From the NCBI GenBank assembly GCA_045837725.1, contig JBEWZL010000098.1:1-64000 (forward strand): a stretch of 64,000 nucleotides of DNA, written 5' to 3'. Each line of letters starts with the position of its first letter. Position 1 is the first letter of the stretch. A program made the position numbers and the translations under genes. Below the pieces are notes generated by a model. The model did not search any database and had not been told where the DNA came from. It saw only the letters and a list, made by a program, of their open reading frames with translations. This document shows, in pieces, positions 2,579-59,508 of the stretch. Origin of the DNA: Vermamoeba vermiformis (lineage: Eukaryota).

Positions 2579-5500
2579 TTATAGCGTGATACCGTTCGCA
2601 CTGCAATATTGATCAATATGTTGACAGATTGATTCAAAATCAGGACGTTCATCTGCATTCATCTTCAAACACATTGATACGAGTTGTGACAGCAGTGGAT
2701 GCATGTCATTGGGAAGTGCTGGAATCAATCCTTGATCTCTGATCTTTGCTCCAATGGCGAGAACGTCTTCGTTAATGTGAGGTTCAGTTTGCGTGATGAT
2801 TTCAGTCAGAACGATGCCGTACATCCAGACATCCTAAAAAGGTGTTACATGTTTAGCATGAAGTGTCGTTAATGTCTAGGCACTTACGCTCTTTGGAGTA
2901 TTGATACGGGCACTCAGGGACTCAGGTGCCATCCATCTGATTGGTCCAATGTTGCTGTAAGTCTTTGACTCTTGGTTCACTTGCAACAAACGAGACATGC
3001 CGAAGTCCGACACTTTCGGCGTTCCTTTCTGCAACAAAACATTGCGTGCAGCCAAATCACGATGAACAATGTTATGCTTGTGAAGATGAAGCATGCCTCG
3101 GGCGATACCTTTTTGAGCGAGGGTTAGGGTTTGGCTTATGAGTTGTGGAAAATCATACCTGCAGCAATACGAATCTTCTCATGGTCGCTAATAGGCTCGC
3201 TTGTTTCAAAAAGCAAGTTATCAAGTGATCCACCGTTACAATACTCCAGAACAATGACAGGTTCAGGTCCGTCGATACTAATCGCAAGAAGTTGAACAAC
3301 GTTTGGATGAGGTGTCAGTTTCATCATCAGTGCTGCCTCACGCAAGAACTCATCCATCTTGCTTGGAACATTGCAGAACTTGAACGCAACTTGTGTTTGT
3401 TGCCATTTGCCGACATAAACTTTGCCAAAACTGCCAGAACCAAGTTCACGATCGAGTTTGAGTGATGATGAAGGAGTCAAGAATGATTTGTCAGCCAATG
3501 AGGTCATGATGTCCATGGACACTTGTTGACGAATGTTTCTTCTGAATCGACCCTTGCGCCATAGTACTACAACCACGATGAGCGCTACTATCAGAGGCAG
3601 ACCAATGCCGAGAGTAAAAGCCAACGCAAACACTGTTGCCTCGCTCAAGTCAGAACAGCTCGCAATGTCAGTTGCTGTGACTTCTACAACAAGCTGCCCA
3701 GCTGTGAAGTTAGTGCTCGACACTTGACTCTTCGTTGCAGTGTACTCGCGACACTTCTCTTCTCGTGCCACTGCCATTGAACCACTCATGAGGTCGCTGT
3801 AAGAATAAATGAACGATATCGGTGTGACCGACAATTGGTCTTGCACATTGGCACCTTGCGTAGATGTGACGGACAGTCCGATATCACCATTCACTCGAAG
3901 ACATTGCGTCCGAATGTCACTTGTCAAGTCAACGAACAACGTTGATCCTGAAGAGACCTCTAAGTCTATTATGCATAGTTAGTAACGCTTAAATGCGCTA
4001 CATTTACTCACATTGATACTGCAGAAACGATGAGATGGTTTCGTTTTGAGTGATAATCTTTCGAGTTCCTGAGCCTGACAGGCGAGACAGAGTCAGTTGT
4101 GCACGTTGTAACTAAGAGCAAGCTTCGAAATAGACTTACAAGGAGGGCTAGATTGACAGATGCTGACAGTCTGATCGCCGCAGCACAAGTTGTTTCCTGC
4201 CACGTTGCACTCCAACATTTGCACGGTCGGCTCAAAGAGACCGATCAGCTGGTTATTGGCCAGATTTCTACGATCGTTAGAAGAGGCCAGTTAACTGATA
4301 AAGTAATTATACTTACAACTGTTTGAGACTTATCATCGTATTGAATGAGTTGGGGATAACGCCGCTCAAGCGATTGTTCTGGAGCGTTCTGAAGGTTGAC
4401 ATGTTAAGAAGTTAAGTGACACGTGTCAAACTTTTTTCACGGTGACACTTACAAGGACGCCAAGCTTTGGAAGTTCTCAAACGTCGAAGGAATAGTGCCC
4501 TCGAGTTGATTGTTCTCCAATGACAGTTGAGTCAAAGTGCCGATAGATCCGAGCTCATCTGGGATCGTCCCCGAGAACGCATTGCTGTCAAGTTGCAGCA
4601 CCTGCAATGATATCATATTCGATATTGATTGTGGTATCACGCCTTGGAAATTATTAGAATTCAATTTCCTGTCCAAACGCAAAGTTAGAGCCACATTTCC
4701 TAATTTGGAAGTACGTACAAAGTGGTGAGATACTGCAGCGAAGTCAATGACGGAGGCAATGTGCCAGAGAGCTCGTTGAATTGAAGGTCGATCTCATTGA
4801 TTGAAGTCAGCGATTCAAAGAAGTCCGGTAGATCTCCTTCAAGTCTGTTGTTGGCAGCAGATCTGTCAAAGAGATATTATTTTTCCGCTTGTAGGGCACT
4901 TTGAATTATATATTGACGTACAGCTTAGCCATATGTTCCAACAGAGACAAAGACGATGGAATCGACCCTTCAAAATTATTGTTGCTCAGATCCCTGTAGA
5001 TGAGACGACGTTAGAAAAGCTCGAAAAGTGAGTAGACTTACAATTCTTGAATTAATCTCGATTTGGTGATATTCGGAATTACTCCGCTGAATCGATTGCC
5101 TTGAAGCTTTCTATATTAAGAATTATTAGTGCTTCGTAAATCTCGTTATTGTACTTACAATGTTCGAAGATTGAGAAATATCTCCAGAGCACTATCAGGA
5201 ATGGGCCCAGAAAAATGATTGAACGATAGGTCCCTAGACGAAATAGCCATAAAATTAGTCTCGTGATGTTTCAAAAACGAGTACGTACAAGGTGTTCAGA
5301 GAAGATCCAGAACCAATTTCAAACTTGGGAAATGCCCCTTCAATACTATTTCGACCAAGCAGCCTATGATAGCTGTTGGTTAGCTAGGAAGAATCGATTA
5401 AGTACAACAATAGCACGCACAAAGTATTGATCGCCCAAGCTGGATTCGGATTGAAAACTCCTGAAAATAAGTTTGACGAGACATCGCTAATAGAAAATAT

Positions 5501-7618: not shown

Positions 7619-10600
7619 TTATATCGTTATTCCATTCGCACTGCAATATTGATCAATATGTTGACAGATTGATTCAAAATCAGGACGTTCATCTGCATTC
7701 ATCTTCAAGCACATTGACACGAGCTGTGACAGCAGTGGATGCATGTCATTGGGAAGCGCTGGAATCAATCCTTGATCTCTGATCTTTGCGCCAATCTCGA
7801 GAGGGTCTTCGCTGACGTGCGGCTCTGCTTGCGAGATGATTTCAGTCAGAACGATGCCGTACATCCAAACATCCTGAAGGCACATCGTCAGTACACTACT
7901 AATAAGCGCTCAATAGTTCCAAACATACCGTCTTGGTGCTGTGCACTCGATTTTTGAGAGACTCAGGCGCCATCCATCGAATGGGACCGATGTTGCTGTA
8001 AGTCTTTGACTCGTTGTTGACCTGGAGCAGTCGTGACATGCCAAAGTCTGACACTTTAGGACTGCCTTTCTGAATCAACACGTTTCGTGCAGCCAAGTCA
8101 CGATGAACGATGTTATGCTTGTGAAGATGAAGCATGCCTCGGGCAATACCTGAACGAATGTTATTAGTACCGGGAATGACACGTGTCACAAAGTGTCATC
8201 TTACCTGCTGCGTAACGAATCTTCTCTTCGTATGAGATCGCCTTCGTTGAGTCGAACAAAATATTGTCAAGCGATCCACCATCACAGTACTCCAGAACAA
8301 TGACAGGTTCAGGTCCGTCGATACTGATTGCAAGAAGTTGAACAACGTTTGGATGAGGTGTCAGTTTCATCATCAGTGCTGCCTCACGCAAGAACTCATC
8401 CATCTTGCTCGGAACATTGCAGAACTTGAACGCAACTTGTGTTTGTTGCCACTTGCCGACATAAACTTTGCCAAAACTGCCAGAACCAAGTTCACGATCG
8501 AGTTTGAGTGATGATGAAGGAGTCAAGAATGATTTGTCAGCCAATGAGGTCATGATGTCCATGGACACTTGTTGACGAATGTTTCTTCTGAATCGACCTT
8601 TGCGCCACAGCACAATCACCACGATTAGAGCGATGATCAGCGGCAGACCAAGGCCGAGAGAAAAAGCGAGAGCAAACACTGTTGCCTCGCTCAAGTTCGA
8701 GCAACCAGCAACTGCAGACGCTGTGAGTGCGATGGTCAACGAACCCGTCGTTGTGTCCGTGGCAGGCGTGACTGACAGTTGAGCTGCAAAGTTGGTGCAC
8801 TTGTCGTTCGAAACAACGTTCAAATCACCAGTGGGAAGGGTGGTGAACGCGTGCGAATAAGAAATTGGCATGAACGTAGTGTCTTGTGAAGGCGTGCTTG
8901 ATACTAAGAGCTGGATATCGCCACTCAAACTGAGGCATTGAGTCTGAATGTTCGTGTTTGGATCAACAAGCAGCACAACTCCTGCGGGCACATCGAGCGC
9001 TAGAAAATACATGGTGAGTTCATTAATAACTCCTTTTGCATCGTAGTGCTTACATTGGAATTGCTGCGACATAGTGATGGTCTCATTTTGAGCAACGATC
9101 TTGCGAGTTCCCGAGCCTTAATGTAGACGTTAGGTACACGTAGAAATATGTGGAAGTAACTTACATGGAGAGCTAGCGCGACAAGCACCTGAGGTTAGAT
9201 CACCGCAACAAAAGTTGTTTCCTCCCAGATTGCACTCGACCAGGGCCATTGTTGGCTCGAAGAATCCCGTCAACTGATTACCGGCCAAGTTCCTGTTGCA
9301 GTGTTAGAGGTACTCATCGATAAACAGAGCACTTACAATTGCTTCAATCCTGTATTCGAGCTCAACGATGATGGAACAGTGCCACTCAGTTGATTGTTCT
9401 GAAGCGTTCTGAAAGCGAAAGTGTCAGATTAAAATGACACGTGTCACTCAAAGTGTCAACAATCGAAGAACTTACAATGAAGCCAGTGCACTGAGGTTCA
9501 GCAAGTTTGAAGGAATCGTGCCGTCCAAAGCGTTGTTCTCGAGTGCCAGCTGTGTCAATGAATTGAGTTGACCGATCTCTGCGGGGATCGTTCCTACGAA
9601 CTTGTTGCTACCCAATTTCCTGCATAGTATTGGTATCACTCGTACCAATAACGAAGTAATATTGCTTACAGTATCTGCGTCGACTTCATAGAACCAATAG
9701 CCGAGGGTATTGTCCCAGTCAGCTCGTTCGACGTTAACACCCTGAAATCAGGCCGGTTAGTTTCTGTTGAAAAAATTGTCTAATTTGTAGTCTTACAATG
9801 ACGTAAGGAATCGGAGGGTGGTAATTGAGGGCGGGAATGGTCCAGAGAACTTGTTGAACTCCAAATTGAGAGTCGATAGACGCGAGATTGTTTCGAAGAT
9901 ATCAGGAATCGTGCCTTCGAACTGATTGTTTGCTACGCTCCTAAATTTATTGAGTTAGTGCTGCGGATGTATAAATTGATGCGTCATTAGCTAACTCACA
10001 AGTCGGTTAGTTGCACCAACTGGCCAATACTTTCTGGCAATGTGCCGACGAACTTGTTGTTGCTCAAGTCGCTGTAAAAATTGTTTAGTAACTATAACAC
10101 GAGTTAGATCGCTGTACGTACAGTGATCCGAGCACGAAAGTGTTCGTAAAATTCGGGAAAGTCCCTGAGAACTGATTGCCTTGTATCTTCCTGCAAAGCG
10201 GGTTAATAACAATATAATTAATACTCTGGAGTACTTACAGCGACAGTAACGTAGTCAGACTGTTCAATCTATCTGCAGGAATAGATCCGCTGAATTGATT
10301 GAACGAGATATCACTTTTGAGGAACGTTAGAATATAGGAGTCATTATATAGTTCGGGAGCTTACAGGTAACGCAATGACGTGCCACTGACAATACCAAAA
10401 AGTGGAAACGATCCGACAAACTGGTTTGAATGAACGTAACTAAGGAGCCGTAAGTTAGATTTTTCGATTGTTGCTATTAATCCTTACATTTCCTGAACGG
10501 AGCCCCAAGCTGGATTAGGAACGAATTCTCCGGTAAAAGCATTTGATGATAAGTCCCTAAAAGTGTTAGCTATTTTCGGTTAGAGTGATATCACATACAG

Positions 10601-20917: not shown

Positions 20918-23900
20918 ATGTTTTTCGACCAATACATCTACAACGCTTCCACAGCCGAAGTTAGTAACGACACCCACAGCGAAAATTTTATGTTTACACC
21001 CCCTTCAACGCCCTCTATCAATGGCGACAGTTCTAGGTCCCTCCCGGGACAATCTAATATTGGAATATTGAAACTCGCGAATCAACTCAACGCGCGATTT
21101 GCAAAGCCAAACCCAGCTAATTTTGAACTACCCAAACAAGAAAACAGCTTCCTTTCTCAAAATATCAAGCAATCAGATTATTCATCATCGTTCTTGTTCA
21201 AATCTCAACAACCAAATCTATTCCAGCAAGAGAAGAAGGCACTTCTAGAGCTAAAGCCCGTGGCGGGCTTATTTAATAATGACTTAAACGCGAAGATTCA
21301 AGAGAATTTATTGAAAGCAAAATTAAAACGAGCCGCAGAAGAAGAGCTCGAGAATCCAAGCCCCGCCAAGAAGTTCAAGGCAGAAGACAGAACACCTATT
21401 AAGATTAGTATTCAACCCGTTAATTTCTTGCCTCAATCACCCAAGCCTTCACCATTCTCAGTTCCTGCATCTCCTGCACCAATGGAGTTTTCGATCGACG
21501 ATCAAATGAACGTGGAAATCGAAAAGTTGATGCAAGATTCGTCAGTATTCGAGAATGCGCCATCGATCTACGACATTTCTCAAGCCCCCCGCGGGGCACA
21601 ACAACAGCAACAACAGAATATCAATGTCAACAACGGTTTGAATTCCTCTCAAGATCAAGTCGTCAACGATGCGCACATCGAGAAGCTGCTCGAGAGTCTT
21701 AGAAGAGCTAGTGAACAGGTGCTTTTGGAACAAGAGCCCAGTCCCTTGCTTATCACGACGATGAGATCGTATCAAAAACAGGCTCTCGCTTGGATGATCC
21801 ACCGCGAGCAGTCTGAGAACAACTCAATGTTCAATTACGACCCCTCATTGGTAAGAGCACCTAGTTTTCTCACTTTCAATCGAAAACAAGTCTTTACTTA
21901 CATTTTGAATTTTTTCTCAGATCGATGCCGATCAACATCACTGTCGTTCCTTGCCTGTACATTGGAAGGAAATGACGACCAGCCAAGGCAAAAAGTATTA
22001 CTACAACGAGGTCACGAAGCAAACGACGTGGAAGTTCCCTTACGACGCCGTCGCTGCTCAACTGGATGAGAACAACAACCAGGCCAAGGCAGTCGTTCGT
22101 GGTGGTATTCTTGCGGATGAGATGGGCATGGGCAAGACGCTGGAAATGTTATCTCTTGTGGTCTCCAACCCTCTCAACCTGGAAGATATTTCTCAACGAT
22201 CCGGCTCCTACATCCCTTCAAAGACGACACTTATCGTCTGTCCTCTCAGTGTTCTTCATCAATGGTACTCTGAAATCAAGCGACACACGCAAAAAGACTC
22301 CATCTCCGTCTATATTTATCACGGTGCCAACCGCCGTGGTGACCTCAACTATCTTACGCAGTTCGACATTGTTCTCACGACGTACGCAACGCTCGCAACG
22401 GAATTTCCCAGTCAAGGCAAGCAAGCTAAAGGCAAGAAAGCAGATCTCGAAGCTCCTATTCCTCACGAGAAGAAAGGCCCTATTCTTCAAGTTCCCTGGT
22501 ACCGAGTTATTTTGGACGAGGCACAAACGATCAAGGACCGAACGACGCGCACGGCCCGCGCAGCTTTTTGTTTGCAAGCTGAGCGGCACTGGTGCGTTAC
22601 CGGGACTCCTATCCAAAACAAATTGGACGATTTATTCAGCTTGCTGCATTTCTTGCGCGTGCGACCGTATGGAGAACATAATTGGTGGAATCAAATCATC
22701 ATGAAGCCCATTCGCAACAGAGACGAGCGTGGTTTTACTCGTTTGCAAACCATCTTGCAGACCATCATGTTGCGACGGACCAAGGACCAACAAATCAACA
22801 ACCAGCCCATCGTTGCTTTGCCTCCTCGTAATGTCACAATGCACGTTTGTGACTTCAGCGAACAAGAACGTGAATTCTACAAGCAGTTGTGGGATTCATC
22901 GAAGAGCAAATTTGACGAGCTCTTCACCAATGGAACAGTTCTGAACAACTATGCACACATCTTGGAGATTTTGCTTCGCCTTCGTCAAGCTTGTGATCAC
23001 CCGCAGTTGGTTGTCGAGAGTCGTCTTAAGACTAAACGAAGACTCGAACAAGCCTCTGAGGACTCCGAGCTGTCAGCCCCCGTTGAAGCACAACAAGAAT
23101 CGACCGAAGCCGCCGTTGCTCCTGCTCAAGACGCTGCCTTTGAGGACGTGCTCTCTTACTTTGACTTGGATATGCCACTTGGTTTGGAGGAAGAGAACGC
23201 CGTTCTTAACAACGAAAACAACGTGCTCCAGAACGATAACGTCTTGAACCATGATAACGTCCTTAACAACGAACACGTCCTTCAGAATGAATCAAGTATC
23301 ATTCAAGCTGAGGGACGTGGCTCACGGTCGACAAAGATCGAAGCATTGATGTCACAACTGAAGGAACTCTACTACGGCGCCAATGCCCAGCCTGGCGATA
23401 AATGTATCATCTTCTCTCAATGGACGTCTATGTTGGACATGCTGGAAGAGCCTCTTGCCCAACTTGGCCTCAAGTTCTGTAGACTAGACGGTGCCATGGC
23501 CCAACACCAACGAGAACAAGCCGTCAAGGACTTCAACAACAAGCCTGAGATCCAATTGTTCTTGATCTCTATGAAGGCCGGTGGTTTAGGTTTGAATCTT
23601 GTTTCTGCCAACCGCGTCTTCTTGCTTGACCCGTGGTGGAATCCTTCTACCGAGGAACAAGCCATCGATCGTGTCCACCGTATTGGCCAGACAAAGACAG
23701 TCTATGTCACAAGATTCGTAGTGAAGGTAAGTCTCGACACTAGCAAAAAAATAATTATAGTCAACGATGAAATTCGATCCACCGTGCGCGGAGCGATTGG
23801 TCAAAACCTTGCCGCCTGCGCTGATTGGTCAATTTTTTTTGTTTTTCGAAATTCGAAAGAAGTCGTCAAAAAGAAAAACCGAGCCTAACGATCTGTTTAA

Positions 23901-32539: not shown

Positions 32540-35500
32540 TTAAAGACGCGACGCTCCGTTGTCGCGAATGACTTCAGAAATAAATTTCTTCAATTCTTCG
32601 GCATTGTCCGTTGCTTTGATTTGCTTGTCGTACTGTTGTTCTAATCTGCTGGAGGAAATGAAAGGCGATCCTTTGCCGAGCAATTGAAGAACCAATTTCT
32701 TGTTGGAGGAAAAATTCGGTTCTGACAAGCTGTCTTTGATTCTTGTTAAATCTTTGAGAAGAGTTGGCTCTCGTGTTTTCTTCTTGCGCACAATCTCGCT
32801 GGTAGGCGGCTCAGCTGATTGCAATATCTCTTTGTTATCCACATGAGACTCGTGGTTCTGTTGAGAGTCGGTAGAAGAGCTCTCTCCGTTGTTGTTAATT
32901 CTAGTTGGTGTGTGTCGTAGTTGACTGACGTTGACTCGTCTAACATCGCGTTTGTTTTCTAAATGTTGAATGTCACAGACTAAACCTTTCACATGTGTGA
33001 CTTTGAAAGGCCCTTCGTTCTTGTACGAAAGTTTTGATCCAACTATCAAATCCAAATAAACTTTGTCTCCAACCTTAATGCTTTCTTTGATCCTTATGCG
33101 ATCGTATTGCTTCTTTTGACGTTGTTTTGCTAATAGATTGTTGTCGCGTACATCGCTGTAGGTTATGTTCAACTTACGCAACAAGTCGCGTGCATACTCG
33201 TCAATGTCTGGTTGTGACTCATCCACTCTTTCGAATTGATCTAAGTTACTGGGCATTCGTGCTTGTCGCCCATATAACAAGAAGAACGGAGAGTACTTAG
33301 TAGAGTGATGCACTGCAATGCGATAAGCAAATAGGACATAATTGATATAGTCGTCCCAGTCATCTTCAAACTCGTTGACATAATGAGTCAGCATGGTAGC
33401 AAGCGTGTGGTTGAACTTTTCTGTTAAGCCATCCGTCTGTGGATGGTAGGCTGTTGTGCGCACCTTCTTTGAATTCAACACACGGTAGATGTCTTGAGCC
33501 AGTGCTGACGAGAAGTTGCTTCCTTGATCAGTGAGGATACGACGAGGAGCACCATGTCGGCATATAACTTCTTCAACTAATTTCTTTGCAATCTCCATTG
33601 TTGATTGATCTGGAAGTGCGAACGCTTCAACCCACTTAGTGAAGTAGTCGACAATGACGATAATGTAGCGATTGCCATTGCGTGTAGGGTTGAAGGGGCC
33701 TAATATGTCCATTCCTATTGTTTCGAATGGTGCGGAAGAGTGTATGGGTTGTAGTAGCCCAGTTAACTTTGTTCGCTTACGACGGATGCACTGCTCGCAG
33801 GTCGAGACCCAAGTAGCGATGTCTTGAAGCATATGATCCCAGAAATAGCGTTCACGGATTCGTTCATATGTCTTGAAGAAACCAAGGTGTCCAGCAATGC
33901 TTGAGTCGTGATGCTCTTCAATAACTTTGGCGTATAAAGTCAACGGAACGACAAGTTGAGATCTTGGTTCGCTGTTACGACGGCCTTGAGGATACCAGAT
34001 TCTAAATAGCAGTCCATCGATCACTGACAGTTCGCGACATGCCTTGATAATGTCTTGTCGCAGAAGTTCATCAGGTGGAAGAGTCTTCTTTGTCAAGTAT
34101 TCAATGTAGCTACGCAGCATTGGATCTCGCATTTGCTCATCACGGAAGTCACTGATTGTGCTGACCATATTGACAACTTCTCCAGTAAGTCGTGAGAGGG
34201 CATCGCTGTTGGCGTGCTGTTTACCAGGACGATAAGAGACGTCGTAATCAAACTCTTGTAGCTGTAAACTCCAACGAGCCAAGCGCTGTGAATTGTCTCC
34301 GACTGTCTTCAACCATCGAAGGCTGTGATGGTCCACCACTACTTCAAATCGACGACCAATTAGGTAGTAGCGGAAGTTCTTGACGGCGTCAACTATTGCC
34401 AGGCATTCTCGTTCCGTAGTAGAATAGTTTCGTTCAGCAGCGTTTAGGGTTCGAGAGAAGTAACAGATTACCACCTCTTTGCCATCTTGAACTTGAGAGA
34501 GCACCGCACCAATGCCGTGATTTGATGCATCTGTGAACAGTACGAAGGGCAGATTGAAGTCAGGGAACGCCAGTATAGGTGCTTCTGTTAGTCTCCTCTT
34601 CAACTCGTCAACTGCTTGTTGCTGTGGAGTGTCCCATTGCCACTCTCCTTCTTTACGCAGTAGCTTATTTAAGGGTTCGGCAATTGTGGCGTAATTCTTA
34701 ATGAACTTTCTGTAATACCCAGTGAGGCCAGTGAATATTCTCACTTCATGAGCATTGCGTGGCGCTGGCATGTCCTTGATCTTGTTCACCTTCTCTGGGT
34801 CTGTTGCAACTCCTGCTGAAGACACGACATGTCCAAGGAATTGAATCTCCTCGCAGAACAATTTACATTTTGATGGCTTGAGAGTGATGTTGGCAGCTCG
34901 AAGGGCGTCAAGTACTAGGGTCAAATTGTCGAGATGCTCGTCGAAACTGCGACCAAATACGATGATATCATCCATATAGACCAGGCAATTCTTCCATAGG
35001 AGGCCTGAAAGGACGACATCCATCAAACGTTGAAATGTAGCAGGTGCATTACACAGCCCAATGGGCATCCTATTGAACTCGAATAGCCCAAAGGGACTAG
35101 TGAACGCAGTCTTTGCACGGTCCTCTGGTCGGATAGATATTTGCCAGAAGCCACTGTCAGCATCGAATGTAGAGAAGAAGATATTGCCAGAGAGTTTGGC
35201 CAAGATGTCATCGATACGGGGCAGTGGGTAGACGTCCTTCTGAGTGATCGCATTGAGTTTGCGATAATCCACACAGAACCGTAGCGTGCCATCTTTCTTC
35301 TTCACCAAGACAATAGGAGCTGACATGGGCGACTTCGAGGGACTAATGATTCCTAGATTCAGCATACGGTCTATCTCGCCTTGCACCACCTTCAAATGAG
35401 CCTCTGGTATTCGATATCCGTGTGCTTTCGGTGTAGTGTCGGTTGTGAGATCGATCCGGTGTTCAGCTGCATTGGTGTTGCCTAACACTTGACTGAATCT

Positions 35501-36598
35501 GTCTCGATTGCGCCACACTAATAGCTTGATTTCATGCAATTGGGCTGCACTCAGCTTAGTGTTCGTGAATTTGAAGCGCGCATCAACCCATTCCTCATCC
35601 ATAGGACTGTCATCTACGGAGTTGACTTCGTCAGAGGTCTGGATGAGTTCATAAGTCTCTAAGTGAGCGATGCGCCGTAATGGAGGGATGATGACCTCTC
35701 GCTCACTAGCATTGATGATACGGATTGGAACATTCCCGTTCTTGATGCTAACTACAGCTAGAGCCAATTGTACTCCATACTGGTGGTAAAAGTTGGTTGC
35801 TGGCACAACTAGAGCAGAGCGATAGTGCACAGGTGTTGGTAGCAAGAACAGTGTCTCTGATCGCGCAGGTATACTAAGGTGGCCATGTGTGATAACTGGC
35901 ACTCGAGCAGTATCCTCGGAGGGGTCGACCGGTAAGTCACTGATTGAATAGCCAGTAACAGAGTTGATAAATTCACGTTGCTCTGCGCGCAGCTCTCTGC
36001 GCCTCTGTCGCGTTGACTTGGGCTTTGTGCGCTTACGCTTCAAGGGTAGCTGTGGGTAGTCAGGGGTTGACTCGTGGAACCACACATTCTCAGAGCCAAA
36101 GTCCATGCACGGCTTTGTCAACCTGATGAAGTCCATGCCCAACACTACGAGGTGATTGATCTCTGGAGACAGGGCAAACTTCACGTCATAGCTGAGGCCA
36201 TTTGCAAACCTGATAGGTAGAATAGCAGTACCTTCAATCTTGAGTTTGCTGTCGTTGATGGCAGAAGCCTGACGTGGCTGTAGGTTGACTCGAATGTCCT
36301 GCTTCTGGTCAAGTAGGCGTTTGACAAGTCGTGATGAGATTAGATTGCACGAGGCTCCAGTGTCCAACAAAGCTTGGATCTGTCTGTTGAACAGCTGAAT
36401 AGGCGCATAGAGCACTGTCTTAGTGTCTAATTTGATGGGTTCAACCACCCCAGATGGCCTGGTTTCTGTGGGTGGGTCAGTCCTCGAGATTGACGCTGGC
36501 ACCACTGACGAGATGTCAGCGACATTATTGACTAGGTCCTGCCCTGGTAGGGAAGTCGGAGGTGGAGAGCAGGAGCCACTCCGACTTAGGCGTTTTCC
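32540..36598 (-). CDS. pol: Retrotransposon Pol (protease, RT, RNase H, integrase), probably expressed by -1 frameshift
   Basis: LLDTGAS; RFCVDYRKLN; YMDDI; TDAS; HH-CC and D,D(35)E integrase; GPF motif; the frame is open from about 36601. Confidence 0.95.
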   Translation of the reverse strand, partial: GKRLSRSGSCSPPPTSLPGQDLVNNVADISSVVPASISRTDPPTETRPSGVVEPIKLDTKTVLYAPIQLFNRQIQALLDTGASCNLISSRLVKRLLDQKQDIRVNLQPRQASAINDSKLKIEGTAILPIRFANGLSYDVKFALSPEINHLVVLGMDFIRLTKPCMDFGSENVWFHESTPDYPQLPLKRKRTKPKSTRQRRRELRAEQREFINSVTGYSISDLPVDPSEDTARVPVITHGHLSIPARSETLFLLPTPVHYRSALVVPATNFYHQYGVQLALAVVSIKNGNVPIRIINASEREVIIPPLRRIAHLETYELIQTSDEVNSVDDSPMDEEWVDARFKFTNTKLSAAQLHEIKLLVWRNRDRFSQVLGNTNAAEHRIDLTTDTTPKAHGYRIPEAHLKVVQGEIDRMLNLGIISPSKSPMSAPIVLVKKKDGTLRFCVDYRKLNAITQKDVYPLPRIDDILAKLSGNIFFSTFDADSGFWQISIRPEDRAKTAFTSPFGLFEFNRMPIGLCNAPATFQRLMDVVLSGLLWKNCLVYMDDIIVFGRSFDEHLDNLTLVLDALRAANITLKPSKCKLFCEEIQFLGHVVSSAGVATDPEKVNKIKDMPAPRNAHEVRIFTGLTGYYRKFIKNYATIAEPLNKLLRKEGEWQWDTPQQQAVDELKRRLTEAPILAFPDFNLPFVLFTDASNHGIGAVLSQVQDGKEVVICYFSRTLNAAERNYSTTERECLAIVDAVKNFRYYLIGRRFEVVVDHHSLRWLKTVGDNSQRLARWSLQLQEFDYDVSYRPGKQHANSDALSRLTGEVVNMVSTISDFRDEQMRDPMLRSYIEYLTKKTLPPDELLRQDIIKACRELSVIDGLLFRIWYPQGRRNSEPRSQLVVPLTLYAKVIEEHHDSSIAGHLGFFKTYERIRERYFWDHMLQDIATWVSTCEQCIRRKRTKLTGLLQPIHSSAPFETIGMDILGPFNPTRNGNRYIIVIVDYFTKWVEAFALPDQSTMEIAKKLVEEVICRHGAPRRILTDQGSNFSSALAQDIYRVLNSKKVRTTAYHPQTDGLTEKFNHTLATMLTHYVNEFEDDWDDYINYVLFAYRIAVHHSTKYSPFFLLYGRQARMPSNLDQFERVDESQPDIDEYARDLLRKLNITYSDVRDNNLLAKQRQKKQYDRIRIKESIKVGDKVYLDLIVGSKLSYKNEGPFKVTHVKGLVCDIQHLENKRDVRRVNVSQLRHTPTRINNNGESSSTDSQQNHESHVDNKEILQSAEPPTSEIVRKKKTREPTLLKDLTRIKDSLSEPNFSSNKKLVLQLLGKGSPFISSSRLEQQYDKQIKATDNAEELKKFISEVIRDNGASRL
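36537..36598 (-). promoter_or_regulatory. -1 programmed ribosomal frameshift signal (G_GAA_AAC plus H-type pseudoknot)
   Basis: Heptamer 36598-36592; 5-nt spacer; stem 1 AGTCGGAG/CTCCGACT; stem 2 TCCTGCTCT/AGGGCAGGA; pol is in the -1 frame. Confidence 0.75.
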
Positions 36599-38538
36599 TG
36601 ATCAATGTCCTCCTCAGCCAGTTCCTCTGAGGGTGGTTCTTCAAGGGCTGCGCTCACTCGTGGATTGTTATTCATAGAGCGTTGGAAGCTTGAGCCATTC
36701 GCGGCAGCAAGGGACTGGGTCTAGGTTGCCCAGAGGTTGAGGTCTGATTTGTTCTGTCCTTGGAACCGGTAGAATGGCAGGGAGAGATGGATGGACCGTG
36801 TCAGCAATTCATCTCAGTGTTGGCGAAGAGCGGAACAGGAATGTGGCGAGCTGTAACAGGCGTGTTGCCTTTACATGTGGCTGACACATGCGCATTCAGC
36901 AGCATGGCGGCAAGGGCCATGATGCTCGGACGCTCTTAGGCCTTTAATGTACGTGATCAGCTTGCGCGACTCGTCAATGTCTCCCACTTGAGCCAGAGTC
37001 TTCATGAAGCGTGCATTGTAGTCGCTGACACCCTCATTGGTCTGCATGTGAATGCTATCCAAAGTGAGTGAAAGCGAGAGCTCCGTTGCAGTGTTTGAGA
37101 AATTAGCACTGAACATTTCGAACAGGTCCTCCGGAGTTGTAGCTGGGCCAATGACATCTCCTCTCTCGATGTAGGTTGCAGCTTCTCCGCGAACTCTGAG
37201 GCACATGCATTGCAGAGTCTGCCGATCACTCCAGTCGAGGATGGCTTGCCAAAGCAAGATCTTGGTATACCAGCGTTGTAAGCTGACCTCGCTGTTCATG
37301 CCGGTATAAAAGAGAACGTCGCTCGGAATCTCTTTCTCATTGAGAGGCTTTTGGTGGCTAGGTACTTCAGAGCCTTTGCGAGTGTAGCGCTTGGCAACTG
37401 CTGAGCCATGAACAGGAATAACACGCTTAGGAGCTGCACCACGAGTCTCTTCCGCGCCTGAATTGGGCTCAGACAAGAATTGCAACTGACGGACAGTGTC
37501 CTGCTGGTGTTCCTCGATCTTGTGTACGAGGTTGGTCAGTTGTCTCTTGATATCAGACAGGGATTCCCCAAGTAGCTGTATGTGCTTTGCGTTGTCCTTG
37601 GTCTCGAGTTGAAGCTGCTTGATTGAATCGATTGTCATGTGACGGAACTCTTCGTACTCCTGAACTTCTTGCGCGAACTGCGCGTCTTGAGCGGTTTGGT
37701 CGGGGCGGGACCAATTGTTGTCAGAAGGGCTGTCTTGAGTCCCCCTGTTGTCAATTCGTTCGCGAGGTGGAGGTTGTTGAGTTGTGTCACGAGTTGTCTC
37801 ATTCTCAGTAACGGTTATCACGGCACCTTGCTGAGCTACATCGCGTTGACGCGAGTGTCTGGTGCCTTCCTCACGCGTGCGCGTCTGCTTGCGGGACTTA
37901 GAGCTTGTTCTCTTAGATTTTTCTCTCCGAGATCGGCGACGATCGCGAGAAGCACTTCTTGAGCGGCTTCTTGAAGAGCTGTCATAGCTTGCTGAGCGAG
38001 AGCGGGAACGAGAACGAGACTTAGAATGGCGAGCGCGGCGGTGCTTTTGGCGATCAGATCTGTGATCACGAGAACGGGACCTTGATTGGCGACTTCTGCG
38101 CCGGTCTCTACGTTCGGATCGACGTCTGTGCCTTCGCGAGCTTCGGTCACGGCGCTTGGGAGAGGGGCTCGAGCTCCTGGGGCTAGGGGAGCGGCCATTG
38201 TCATCCCTTTGGTCAGATTGGCGAGATCTTGACCTTTTGCGCGGACTAGCTTGATTGCCGGGCTCTGCCTGGGAGGCGTGCGACTTAGGAGCAGCTGCAG
38301 AGGCGTGAGAACTAGCTCTCGACTGTGAACTCTCGCGGGAGTCTTTCATCCCTGAGTTGGTCCGCGTCCCCTCTGAGCTCGGTGCTAGGGGAGCGGCCGT
38401 CGAGGTAGTCCCAGGCGCTGAGCTGTCCGCTCTAGCGTTTGAGCTAGGCTGCTGGCTGGGCGGGGCTTCTCCCCCTTGAGATGCGAGCAGGTCTCGCTGC
38501 GATTGAGAGCGCGTACGGATGCGATTGTCTGACGACAT
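36586..38538 (-). CDS. gag: Retrotransposon Gag with RS-rich N-terminus; three in-frame stops in the 3' part
   Basis: Capsid-like QTNEGVSDYNARF...YIKGLR; the same frame ends QENA* at 36586; stops at 36871, 36814 and 36721. Confidence 0.8.
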
Positions 38539-38668
38539 AGGTGGCTTGTAATATAATTATTGGAATTATTGGCGATGTTATTACAATTTTCATACAACGT
38601 TTTGCCAACTCCGAATCAATTTCCACAACCGAATCTACAACAACGGTTCACGCAAAATCGGAACCAAA

Positions 38669-56900: not shown

Positions 56901-58497
56901 CTCAAAAGGACAAGTTCGGTATCACTCCTCTTCACATCTGCGCTCACCGCTCTTTTGCCTCGTCCCTTGTCGAGCTCTTCAGAAAGAAAGGCGTTGTGTT
57001 GAACGCAAAGGACAAGTACGGCCAGACTGCTCTGCACTATGCCGCTCGATACGCTAGTGTTCAGACTGTTAAGGCCCTCTTGGCGATCAACGAGGAACTT
57101 GCTGAAGAGGCTAGAAACACCAACTCGTTCTTGTAAGTTTGCTATTGTACCTTCTCGACAAAATTTTTCTAACCTCTCTGTAGTGCCAAGGACGAGAAGC
57201 CACGAATCTTCGTTGAACTTGAAGCTCAAAACATGTTTGGCCAGACTCCTTTGTACGTCGCTATGTTCCAATTAGCCAAGTGCCACTCGTTCAAGGACAA
57301 CTACGATGAATTGTCTGGCTTGCCTTTGGCTCAAGAGAAGCACGATTGGGAAGAAATTGCTCAGCTGCTCAAGAAGGCTGGCGCTAGATCCCCTGGCCTG
57401 TCGTTCTACTACAACTTGACTGGTGAATTGCCCTCGCCTTACTTGTCTAACGGCAAGGTCGTTAAGCTCAACAAGGCCACTACCCCACGCGAGACTTTGC
57501 GATCCGCCTTGAACGTAAGTAATACACTATGAAGCTTAATGTGTACTTACCATGTAACAGCTTGGCCTCTACGTGCCCGAGGTCGAAGAAGAGTTCGTGC
57601 CTTCGTACTTGAAGGGCAAGACTCAACCCAAGAAGCCAGTCTTCGAAGAGGAAGAGGATGATTTTGTTGCCATGCAACCTCCTCGCAAGAAGAAGTTCGA
57701 GTGGAGCGAGCCTGTCAGTGCCAGCCTGCCCAGATCACCTGTGCACGACAACACGCCAACCTTCAACTTCCCCATTCCTCAAGACAACCCGTTCACTGTT
57801 GGTGCTGTCGAGAAGAAGGCCACGGATGTAAGTACTCGTATTAAGATATATCAAGCAGTCCTAATTGTGCAACAGGCCAAGAGATCACCCATGAAGCACA
57901 GTCCATTCAAAAACGCAGAGCGAGAGCCTTCCTCGCCCGTTATGGCACGACGAGTATTGGACAATCAACCTGGCTTCTCGTTCGGTGAAACAACTCACTT
58001 TGCTTCAACTCCTTCCGAACCATTGCCCGCGTTCTCTCTTGCTCCTCAGCCAGGCCAACAAGCCGGTTCTTCTTTGTTCGTAAGCGACCCCGTGCCTGTT
58101 GGCGAGAAGCCTGCTTCAACCCAAGGCTTGGCTGCTTTGAAGGCTCGTGTCCTTTGTAAGTTCTTCCATCCTCTTGAGGTATACTAGCACGATACTAATC
58201 TTTCACAGCTCTCATCAAGCCAAATGATAAGCCAAAGACAGCTGCTGGCAAGGTGCTTTTAGGACTCAGTAAGCTCCATAAGAAGAGCTCTTTGTCCGCC
58301 GATGAAAAGTCACGCTTGAAGACCTTGGCCTTGCAAGACGACAAGAAGGTTGTTAGTGCCTTCCAAGCCTTTGAAGCTGATAAAGACGAGAATGAATTGC
58401 TCGACACTCTCAAGAGTAAGTTTTTAATTTGATGAATTCGAGTTACGGACACGAGACTAACTACTTTTCATTTGTAGTGATCATCACTCGTGCTTAA
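50948..58497 (+). CDS. Giant multidomain protein: BRCT, WGR, PARP regulatory and catalytic domains, PAH, nucleotidyltransferase-like domain, ankyrin repeats
   Basis: BRCT (GGSASYML..TTHLV); WGR-like (NKYYCLE...THYGR); LSNDFYTMIPH; LLFHGS, GIYF, DDEYVIF; PAH (ALAFMENLKKRF...FANFLP); NVFVAGGAV...SDIDMFLYGL; TPLHIAA repeats; exons joined by short GT-AG introns. Confidence 0.85.
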
Positions 58498-58568
58498 GCA
58501 ATTCAGCGCTTTTGTAAAAAAACTAGTGTTTTATATAAAATTATTTTGTTTTGACAAGCGACTTGCAC

Positions 58569-58576
58569 AAAAAAAA
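58569..58576 (-). terminator. RNA polymerase III terminator (T8)
   Basis: A8 on the plus strand, 28 nt downstream of the tRNA 5' half. Confidence 0.7.
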
Positions 58577-58604
58577 GAGAAGGGATGACAGCGTTGCGCG
58601 TCTA

Positions 58605-58713
58605 GGTGTGCTACCACTACACCACGTCGGCAGGCTGCTGTGACAAATGCAAAGCAAACCTTTGAATATTCCGACGGCAGGAATCGAACCTACGTCACCG
58701 GTGTGAAAGACCG
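58605..58713 (-). tRNA. Circularly permuted tRNA-Glu(TTC): 3' half 58713-58669, 37-nt spacer, 5' half 58631-58606/58605
   Basis: The halves join into a 71-nt cloverleaf: acceptor CCGACG/CGTCGG, D stem GTGT/GCAC, anticodon CCGGT-CTTTCAC-ACCGG, T arm GTAGG-TTCGATT-CCTGC. Confidence 0.8.
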
Positions 58714-58988
58714 AAGGAACGCGAGTGAACTATTTGGGCATCCCAAAAACATTGCGAGCGAGAGAAAACGGCACTTGTCTAGTGAACCAAATGCCGCGGT
58801 AGTGTACAGCCTCGAAATAAATTTAATCCCACGGGCGTTGGACGCAGAGGTACTGGATGATGTCGCTTTTGTCAACCTACATGCAAATCAAATCCTAGAT
58901 TTTTGATCGTCAAACTGCAAAGATTATTTATCGACGCGGTTTCGGTCCGAATCTTATCGCTTGAATTTATGTACGTGAGATTAAAATA

Positions 58989-59508
58989 TTACAAATCACC
59001 ACCGCCATCGTCCGCAGACTCCTGGCTTTTCTGGAGCCGTTTTAGTCTCATGGATTCAATATCCTCCAGAGTCGGAAGGTGAATCCGAACATTAGGCCAC
59101 GTATTTTTTTCTATTAGAATGTACAATCGGCAGTCTAACTGATGTATTTAGGAGCAGAGCGAACTGTAGCAAAAAATTGTACATTTCAGAATAAATAAAC
59201 ATAAAATAAACTCAACTTACTCCTGTTTCGGCGCATATCGCGAGATCATTTTGAATTCTAATTCGGAATAATGTTCTGCGGATCTCGCTCTCCAAAGACT
59301 GCCGCTTGTCTGCATCCGACTCTACCTCGCACTGCTTTTGCAACTGAGCTATGTGGTCCTTATACTCTTGTATCTTTGCAACAACCTCGTCTCTCTCCGC
59401 CTTATATTTATTCAGTTCAGCGATCTGACTCTGACTTAGCGGCTTCAGTCGCTTTTTCAAGTTCTTCGGCTTGTAAGTCTTTAAATGTTGAAGAGAGCCC
59501 TCATCCAT
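58989..59508 (-). CDS. Hypothetical coiled-coil protein; exon structure and ends uncertain
   Basis: Charged helical ORF MDEGSLQHLKTYKPKNL...AICAETG followed by a GTAAGT donor. Confidence 0.4.

Follow-up and report, generated by a model that had tools for sequence, protein, structure and literature searches.

On the minus strand of the 64-kb stretch of DNA analysed here (the window), the two halves of a tRNA-Glu gene stand in swapped order: a 45-nt 3' half comes first, followed by a 37-nt spacer and a 26-nt 5' half. The locus matches a permuted tRNA gene in layout but lacks the BHB motif. We tentatively regard it as a genuine circularly permuted tRNA-Glu(UUC) gene, functional now or until recently, an explanation that its sequence suggests and that falls just short of probable.

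Two tRNA halves in swapped order

The locus consists of the following features, in the order in which the minus strand is read.

58745..58749, minus strand: T5 run upstream of the leader (runs of T5 or longer occur about 2 per kb on the minus strand)
58714..58744, minus strand: leader, 31 nt, with three blocks that pair with the trailer
58669..58713, minus strand: tRNA-Glu 3' half, nt 28-73 (from ARAGORN, Rfam and the sequence)
58680..58690, minus strand: T-loop/B-box sequence, where the B-box pattern has its sole exact match in the window
58632..58668, minus strand: intervening spacer, 37 nt, without a T4 run
58606..58631, minus strand: tRNA-Glu 5' half, nt 1-27 (from ARAGORN and the sequence)
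58577..58605, minus strand: trailer, 29 nt, of which 58602-58597, 58592-58588 and 58587-58582 pair with the leader
58569..58576, minus strand: T8 run, Pol III terminator-like, about 28 nt past the 5' half

The 3' half holds the last four pairs of the anticodon stem, the anticodon loop with TTC (58707-58705), a 4-nt variable loop, the T arm, the 3' strand of the acceptor stem and the discriminator A; CCA is not encoded in it. The 5' half holds the acceptor 5' strand from G1, U8, the D arm with G18G19, A26 and C27, and an A-box sequence lies within its D arm (58624-58614, minus strand). C58605 fits either half, i.e., it can be tRNA nt 28 or part of the trailer, so the joint is at 27/28 or 28/29. 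Within the spacer, a small hairpin is predicted that closes the acceptor stem. The whole locus lies in a 650-bp gap separating convergent genes, and its T8 run is just beyond the 3' end of the convergent plus-strand mRNA.

An earlier sequence-only reading had proposed these coordinates and strings (halves, spacer, T8 run, and leader and trailer hexamers), all of which are present in the window, as is the proposed 37-nt spacer without a T4 run (58668-58632). It had also placed the B box ahead of the A box, and the sequence of the locus has that order. The B-box pattern has 14 matches in the window at no more than one mismatch, one of them exact, namely the T loop of the 3' half. The other 13 sites in the 64-kb window have no tRNA context, so the tRNA-Glu site is the only one that does.

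When the halves are joined by their coordinates, ARAGORN reports a tRNA-Glu(ttc) of 71 nt with a score of 122.6, and every cut register tried gave tRNA-Glu(ttc) on joining. Random joins of the same geometry, drawn from the window as controls, gave no tRNA of any kind (0/3985). Set against these controls, a score of 122.6 places the observation of swapped halves far beyond chance. Apart from 1 nt that could belong to either, each half supplies exactly what the other lacks, with no gap or overlap, and the joined tRNA has the consensus elements U8, G15:C48, G18G19, U33, the T-loop sequence and a 4-nt variable loop (as drawn by ARAGORN). All four arms are intact, and every stem is paired except at 1-72. 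The sequence-only reading had described a complete 71-nt cloverleaf; it was right about the identity, tRNA-Glu(TTC), and the length but overlooked the mismatch of the first acceptor pair.

At that acceptor end, G1 lies opposite A72, and ARAGORN draws an acceptor stem of eight positions with T58632-A73 above the G.A mismatch. Eukaryotic cytosolic tRNA-Glu usually has U1-A72. Judged from the bases, the acceptor end looks like the result of a T-to-G change or of a G inserted after T58632, and this mismatch or extra G is the only possible disabling change in the joined tRNA.

In the native order, ARAGORN finds 0 tRNA genes in the window, and Rfam at its gathering score finds no tRNA, i.e., no colinear member of RF00005. 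Rfam in E-value mode reports a partial tRNA match at 58732-58677, with 19.9 bits against a gathering score of 29, which recognises the anticodon and T arms only.

Misassembly had been named in advance as a check on the claim. In a wastewater metagenome produced by a different study, a 151-nt unitig has 0 differences from the window over 58614-58764. It begins 51 nt before the 3' half, in sequence upstream of the leader, continues through that half and the spacer, and ends 18 nt into the 5' half, short of the boundary with the trailer. Because this unitig is independent and shows the swapped order, an assembly artefact is very unlikely as the cause of the order. Two DNA runs also contain most of the sampled words (0.98 and 0.89); they are probably from the source sample and are therefore no independent witnesses of the order. 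That lack of independence is what can be said for an artefact or a chance resemblance, an explanation which the identical sequence in an unrelated metagenome and the empty control joins make highly improbable.

Leader, trailer and junction

The leader and trailer pair over 17 bp in three blocks with an energy of -20.0 kcal/mol: 58744-58739 with 58587-58582, 58733-58729 with 58592-58588, and 58723-58718 with 58602-58597. The last of these is the pairing of leader CGCGTT with trailer GACGCG that the sequence-only reading had noticed, and the helix is longer than it had stated. Shuffled leader-trailer pairs reach -10.0 +/- 2.9 kcal/mol, with 4/1000 as good as the real duplex, and 0.9% of segment pairs of the same geometry from the window (n=3000) reach its energy; both figures are somewhat generous, since the leader and trailer boundaries were set after the fold had been viewed. 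An unconstrained fold of the 169-nt unit contains the same leader-trailer helices as well as all four tRNA arms (anticodon, T, acceptor and D), and the stability of the whole unit is not significant against shuffles (z = -1.26).

The T runs frame this helix. There is no T4 run in the 109-nt core, and only 0.3% of random minus-strand positions have a T4-free core with runs of T5 or longer within 40 nt on both sides. A run of T5 or longer lies within 40 nt downstream of 7% of random minus-strand points, and runs of T8 or longer number 5 on the minus strand in 64 kb. The outermost leader-trailer block starts directly after the T5 run and ends five bases short of the T8 run. With no internal T4 run, a T8 run downstream and the leader-trailer helix, the locus looks from its sequence as if built as a transcribable unit. 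The T5 run at 58749-58745, absent from the sequence-only reading, would stop Pol III transcripts begun further upstream, so the leader would be at most 31 nt long.

Promoter signals are less regular. Inspection by eye of the 50 nt upstream (58763-58714) revealed no TATA-like element; promoter rules in this lineage may differ. An A-box-like string lies in the leader (58732-58722, minus strand), 43 nt before the B box, and agrees with the A-box consensus at 6/9 specified positions; Rfam aligns it to model positions 8-10. As its spacing to the B box is normal, TFIIIC might use it to start transcription at about 58744, and it could also be there by chance.

In two mRNA-type RNA runs with the same species label, 58564-59000 is empty except for one read. 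From the depth bins, this read lies at about 58669-58721, i.e., it covers the 3' half and eight bases of the leader. No read crosses the 27/28 joint in these two runs, a type of library in which tRNAs are not expected. The RNA reads are 90-99% like the window (about 5% diverged), with six fixed or near-fixed differences within about 80 nt (58312-58392), which indicates that the runs come from a diverged strain or a sibling species. Coverage is similar on both strands, so the library gives no strand information.

The same reads outline the neighbouring convergent gene on the plus strand. Its last exons lie at 58300-58567 with an intron at 58416-58477 (GT..AG), and coverage ends at about 58563. 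A contig with another organism label matches at about 98% identity up to 58567, where it stops just short of the A8 complementary to the T8 run. The plus-strand mRNA end at about 58563-58567 could be real or an artefact of oligo-dT priming.

For the junction, we enumerated canonical BHB topologies at both joints in three cut registers each, with each bulge 3' of its central-helix strand, as in the canonical topology that follows from the anticodon-intron pair at nt 32. By the definition in PMC3978253, a BHB has two 3-nt bulges, a 4-bp helix between them and helices on the flanks. In all six canonical cut registers, at most 2/4 positions of the central helix are paired, and the locus has neither a strict nor a relaxed BHB; the sequence-only reading had likewise been unable to draw a canonical one. 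With the joint inside one strand of the anticodon stem, the exons cannot form a flanking helix with each other, and a three-way junction results. An internal loop of 3 x 4 nt, made of trailer CUA and leader CCUU, parts the anticodon stem from the leader-trailer helix. On this predicted structure, the junction at best resembles the 'no H' class of PMC3978253.

One non-canonical BHB was considered and rejected. Trailer AGAC pairs 4/4 with GUCU at the start of the 3' half; the bulges are on the wrong sides of this central helix, and one such match is expected by chance in 12 trials.

The start of the 5' half carries a possible scar. The 10-nt sequence CCTGCCG(A/T)CG occurs as a direct repeat with one mismatch at 58634-58625 and 58681-58672: where the 5' half starts, CCGACG is preceded by CCTG (three spacer bases and G1), just as CCGTCG in the 3' half is preceded by CCTG of the T stem. 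The near-palindromic acceptor stem accounts for part of this repeat. For the four matches beyond it, the chance is about 1 in 256, judged post hoc, and the CCTG repeat may be a recombination scar.

A working gene or a relic

If the gene works, its RNA would be made and matured as follows. Pol III or another polymerase would start just downstream of the T5 run and transcribe the leader, both halves with the 37-nt spacer between them, and the trailer into a single RNA of about 170 nt, stopping in the T8 run. The tRNA arms would fold, and the leader and trailer would zip into the interrupted 17-bp helix, which would hold nt 27 and nt 28 together across the CUA/CCUU internal loop. An endonuclease would then cut both flaps and a tRNA ligase would seal nt 27 to nt 28, leaving an intermediate that is either circular or nicked, from which RNase P and tRNase Z would excise the spacer before CCA is added. 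For this, the cutting enzyme would have to be able to work at 27/28 on a joint of 'no H'-like or non-BHB form. Such a BHB-less route would require an endonuclease of new specificity followed by ligation, or else a two-piece tRNA that is never ligated.

Several observations count against a working gene: the absent BHB, the G1.A72 mismatch or extra G, the missing TATA-like element, the CCTG repeat, the B box standing before the A box, and an ordinary fold stability. The missing BHB and the flaw at 1-72, in particular, mean that a working gene needs special pleading. Amoebozoan genomes usually carry many tRNA genes, so a lone odd copy need not be used. Amoebozoans also use 3'-5' polymerases (Thg1-like proteins) for tRNA 5' editing, and such enzymes might repair G1.A72. 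Taken as a whole, the specific proposal that an amoebozoan makes working tRNA-Glu(UUC) from a permuted gene broken at 27/28, using a leader-trailer helix and no BHB, is possible but less likely than not.

The reading that the locus is a neutral relic has a good deal in its favour and is quite possible, if clearly below an even chance. Here a tRNA-plus-spacer repeat unit, or a reverse-copied circularised pre-tRNA, would have been opened at 27/28 and inserted, leaving a young, silent and decaying copy. Circle and repeat-unit reinsertion are among the models of origin in PMC3978253 (Fig. 5B,C), and any one-step event of that type gives an exact permutation. Read as a 3' trailer that ends in TTT, followed by a 5' leader of 13 nt, the spacer would suit a circularised primary transcript, and the CCTGCCG(A/T)CG repeat suggests microhomology-mediated joining. 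The acceptor flaw, the lack of a BHB and of a recognisable upstream promoter, and the single read in the RNA runs (mRNA-type libraries from a diverged strain) also agree with a relic. The leader-trailer pairing and T8 run would then be coincidental, the latter deriving from the AT-rich 3' end of the convergent gene, whose mRNA ends 2-13 nt before it. Yet the helix (about 0.01) and a run of T5 or longer within 40 nt downstream (0.07) have a joint chance below 0.001 if independent, and all four arms are still intact. Nor is there, by eye, a target-site duplication or poly(A) tail flanking the unit, and a repeat/MITE test found no second copy of 58300-59100 in the window.

How much the intact arms mean depends on the origin. 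The tandem-duplication/pseudogene model (PMC3978253, Fig. 5A) can give the same order of halves, and the acceptor flaw and direct-repeat scar here are in keeping with it; the locus differs in that no remains of outer halves accompany it and in that it carries a helix and T runs, for which a relic has no use. Aligned locally to the halves, the flanks do no better than shuffled sequence. Gap-free in-register identity is 11/26 between leader and 5' half, a level reached by 3.1% of registers and too weak to use, and 8/45 between trailer and 3' half. If the origin was tandem duplication and loss, the missing trace of outer halves means that the loss is old, and inner halves that outlived the outer ones imply selection. 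If it was a one-step event from a repeat unit or a circularised pre-tRNA, the locus may be young and its intactness is uninformative.

It is improbable that the locus serves some other use, such as a TFIIIC-binding B-box landmark, a short RNA of 5' half plus trailer made from the A box, or an unligated two-piece tRNA whose halves are held by the acceptor stem and the leader-trailer helix. The perfect B box and the A box, the position in the 650-bp gap between convergent genes and the strong helix without a BHB would all suit such roles. Nothing in the data calls for them, however, and they leave the exact complementarity of the halves and the intact arms unexplained. We know of no two-piece tRNA in the eukaryotic cytosol, which counts against that variant.

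Comparison with known permuted genes

The window is nuclear eukaryotic DNA, as seen from a Ty3/gypsy-type polyprotein, kinases, ankyrin repeats, polyubiquitin, a mitochondrial carrier and a WW-SNF2 RAD5-like protein. The retroelement (32540-38556, minus strand) has a 1353-aa frame with protease, RT, RNase H and integrase, and the 561-aa frame upstream of it, without a Pfam match, is possibly gag. Two pieces of tyrosine-kinase-like kinase genes (3136-3978 and 8164-9117, minus strand) are surrounded by nearly the same DNA (around 3260 and 8306), which indicates a recent local duplication. The WW-domain and SNF2/RAD5-like helicase (21909-23888, plus strand) has close relatives of 90-98% in public assemblies. 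Among the best matches to this SNF2 protein, six bear an NCBI name, of which four are amoebozoan, one is a conifer and one is incomplete; the amoebozoan matches are Planoprotostelium (45%), Pelomyxa (42%) and Balamuthia (43%), all three with lineage records that place them there, and Acanthamoeba (55% over 36% of the query). The proposal of an amoebozoan-like host fits these best named matches, which make it likely rather than proven. The nearest named match of the mitochondrial carrier is a jakobid (63%) and is uninformative on lineage.

Relatives of the locus were sought in metagenomes. A scan with a 33-nt stretch of the 3' half gave 0 matches. A second scan, with a pattern of the anticodon arm and T loop, gave 8 loci, all colinear tRNA-Glu genes; their setting, dense tRNA arrays on contigs of 58-66% G+C, marks them as bacterial or phage-like and no relatives.

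As compiled in PMC3978253, 34 permuted genes comprise 11 from Cyanidioschyzon, 19 from four prasinophytes, 2 from the Bigelowiella nucleomorph and 2 from Thermofilum. Their junctions are at 15/16, 20/21, 37/38, 50/51 and 59/60, none of the 34 is a Glu gene, their intervening sequences are 1-74 nt long, and the eukaryotic ones encode no CCA (PMC3978253). Position 27/28 appears in the available part of that study only as a predicted 'no H' intron site in Ser(TGA) of O. lucimarinus. A 2026 review, in the part available, still names algae and archaea only (PMC13578239). Among the literature matches listed, judged by title and start of abstract, there is no report of a permuted tRNA gene in a non-algal eukaryote. 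Matches listed for permuted tRNA with Amoebozoa or amoeba likewise show none, in line with the earlier claim that no amoebozoan case had been reported.

The locus is closest in its general design to the genes of Cyanidioschyzon merolae, as described in the available accounts (Soma et al. 2007; PMC3978253). Shared traits are a 3' half upstream on one strand, a short spacer (here 37 nt), no internal terminator, a T stretch downstream, no encoded CCA, complementary leader and trailer, inverted A and B boxes, and junctions not confined to 37/38. It differs from them, as far as those accounts go, in that its joint at 27/28 (or 28/29) is inside the anticodon stem with no BHB, no TATA-like element lies within 50 nt upstream, and 1-72 is mismatched. 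It also differs in isotype (Glu) and host (probably an amoebozoan, not an alga).

The prasinophyte and Bigelowiella nucleomorph genes (Maruyama et al. 2010, via PMC3978253 and PMC13578239) are eukaryotic and nuclear and have the same gene order. In these accounts, their junctions are almost all at 37/38, with an hBH motif suiting the eukaryotic endonuclease, whereas the locus here has 27/28 without a central helix. The 'no H' intron of O. lucimarinus is at the same tRNA position as our joint and has a relaxed motif. Thermofilum pendens (Chan et al. 2011, PMC3218864) shares the permuted order, and one of its junctions is classed 'no H' in PMC3978253, a further likeness. That archaeon differs in its 59/60 junction, encoded CCA, spacers of 1-7 nt and single-copy essential genes.

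Permuted tRNA genes reported so far, on the available parts of PMC3978253 and PMC13578239, are from a few unicellular algae, one nucleomorph and one archaeon, and all are tied to BHB splicing. If the locus is a relic, it would be a rare snapshot of the birth of a permuted gene and would support the one-step model in which a circle or repeat unit is reinserted. If it is functional, it would be the first permuted tRNA gene known from any host other than algae and Thermofilum, and its 27/28 junction would be new as well. A working gene of this kind in a heterotrophic amoebozoan would mean that the trait arises more widely than thought and that tRNA gene finders miss real genes in protist genomes. 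Working without a BHB, it would point to a route of joining tRNA ends that is independent of the known recognition motif.
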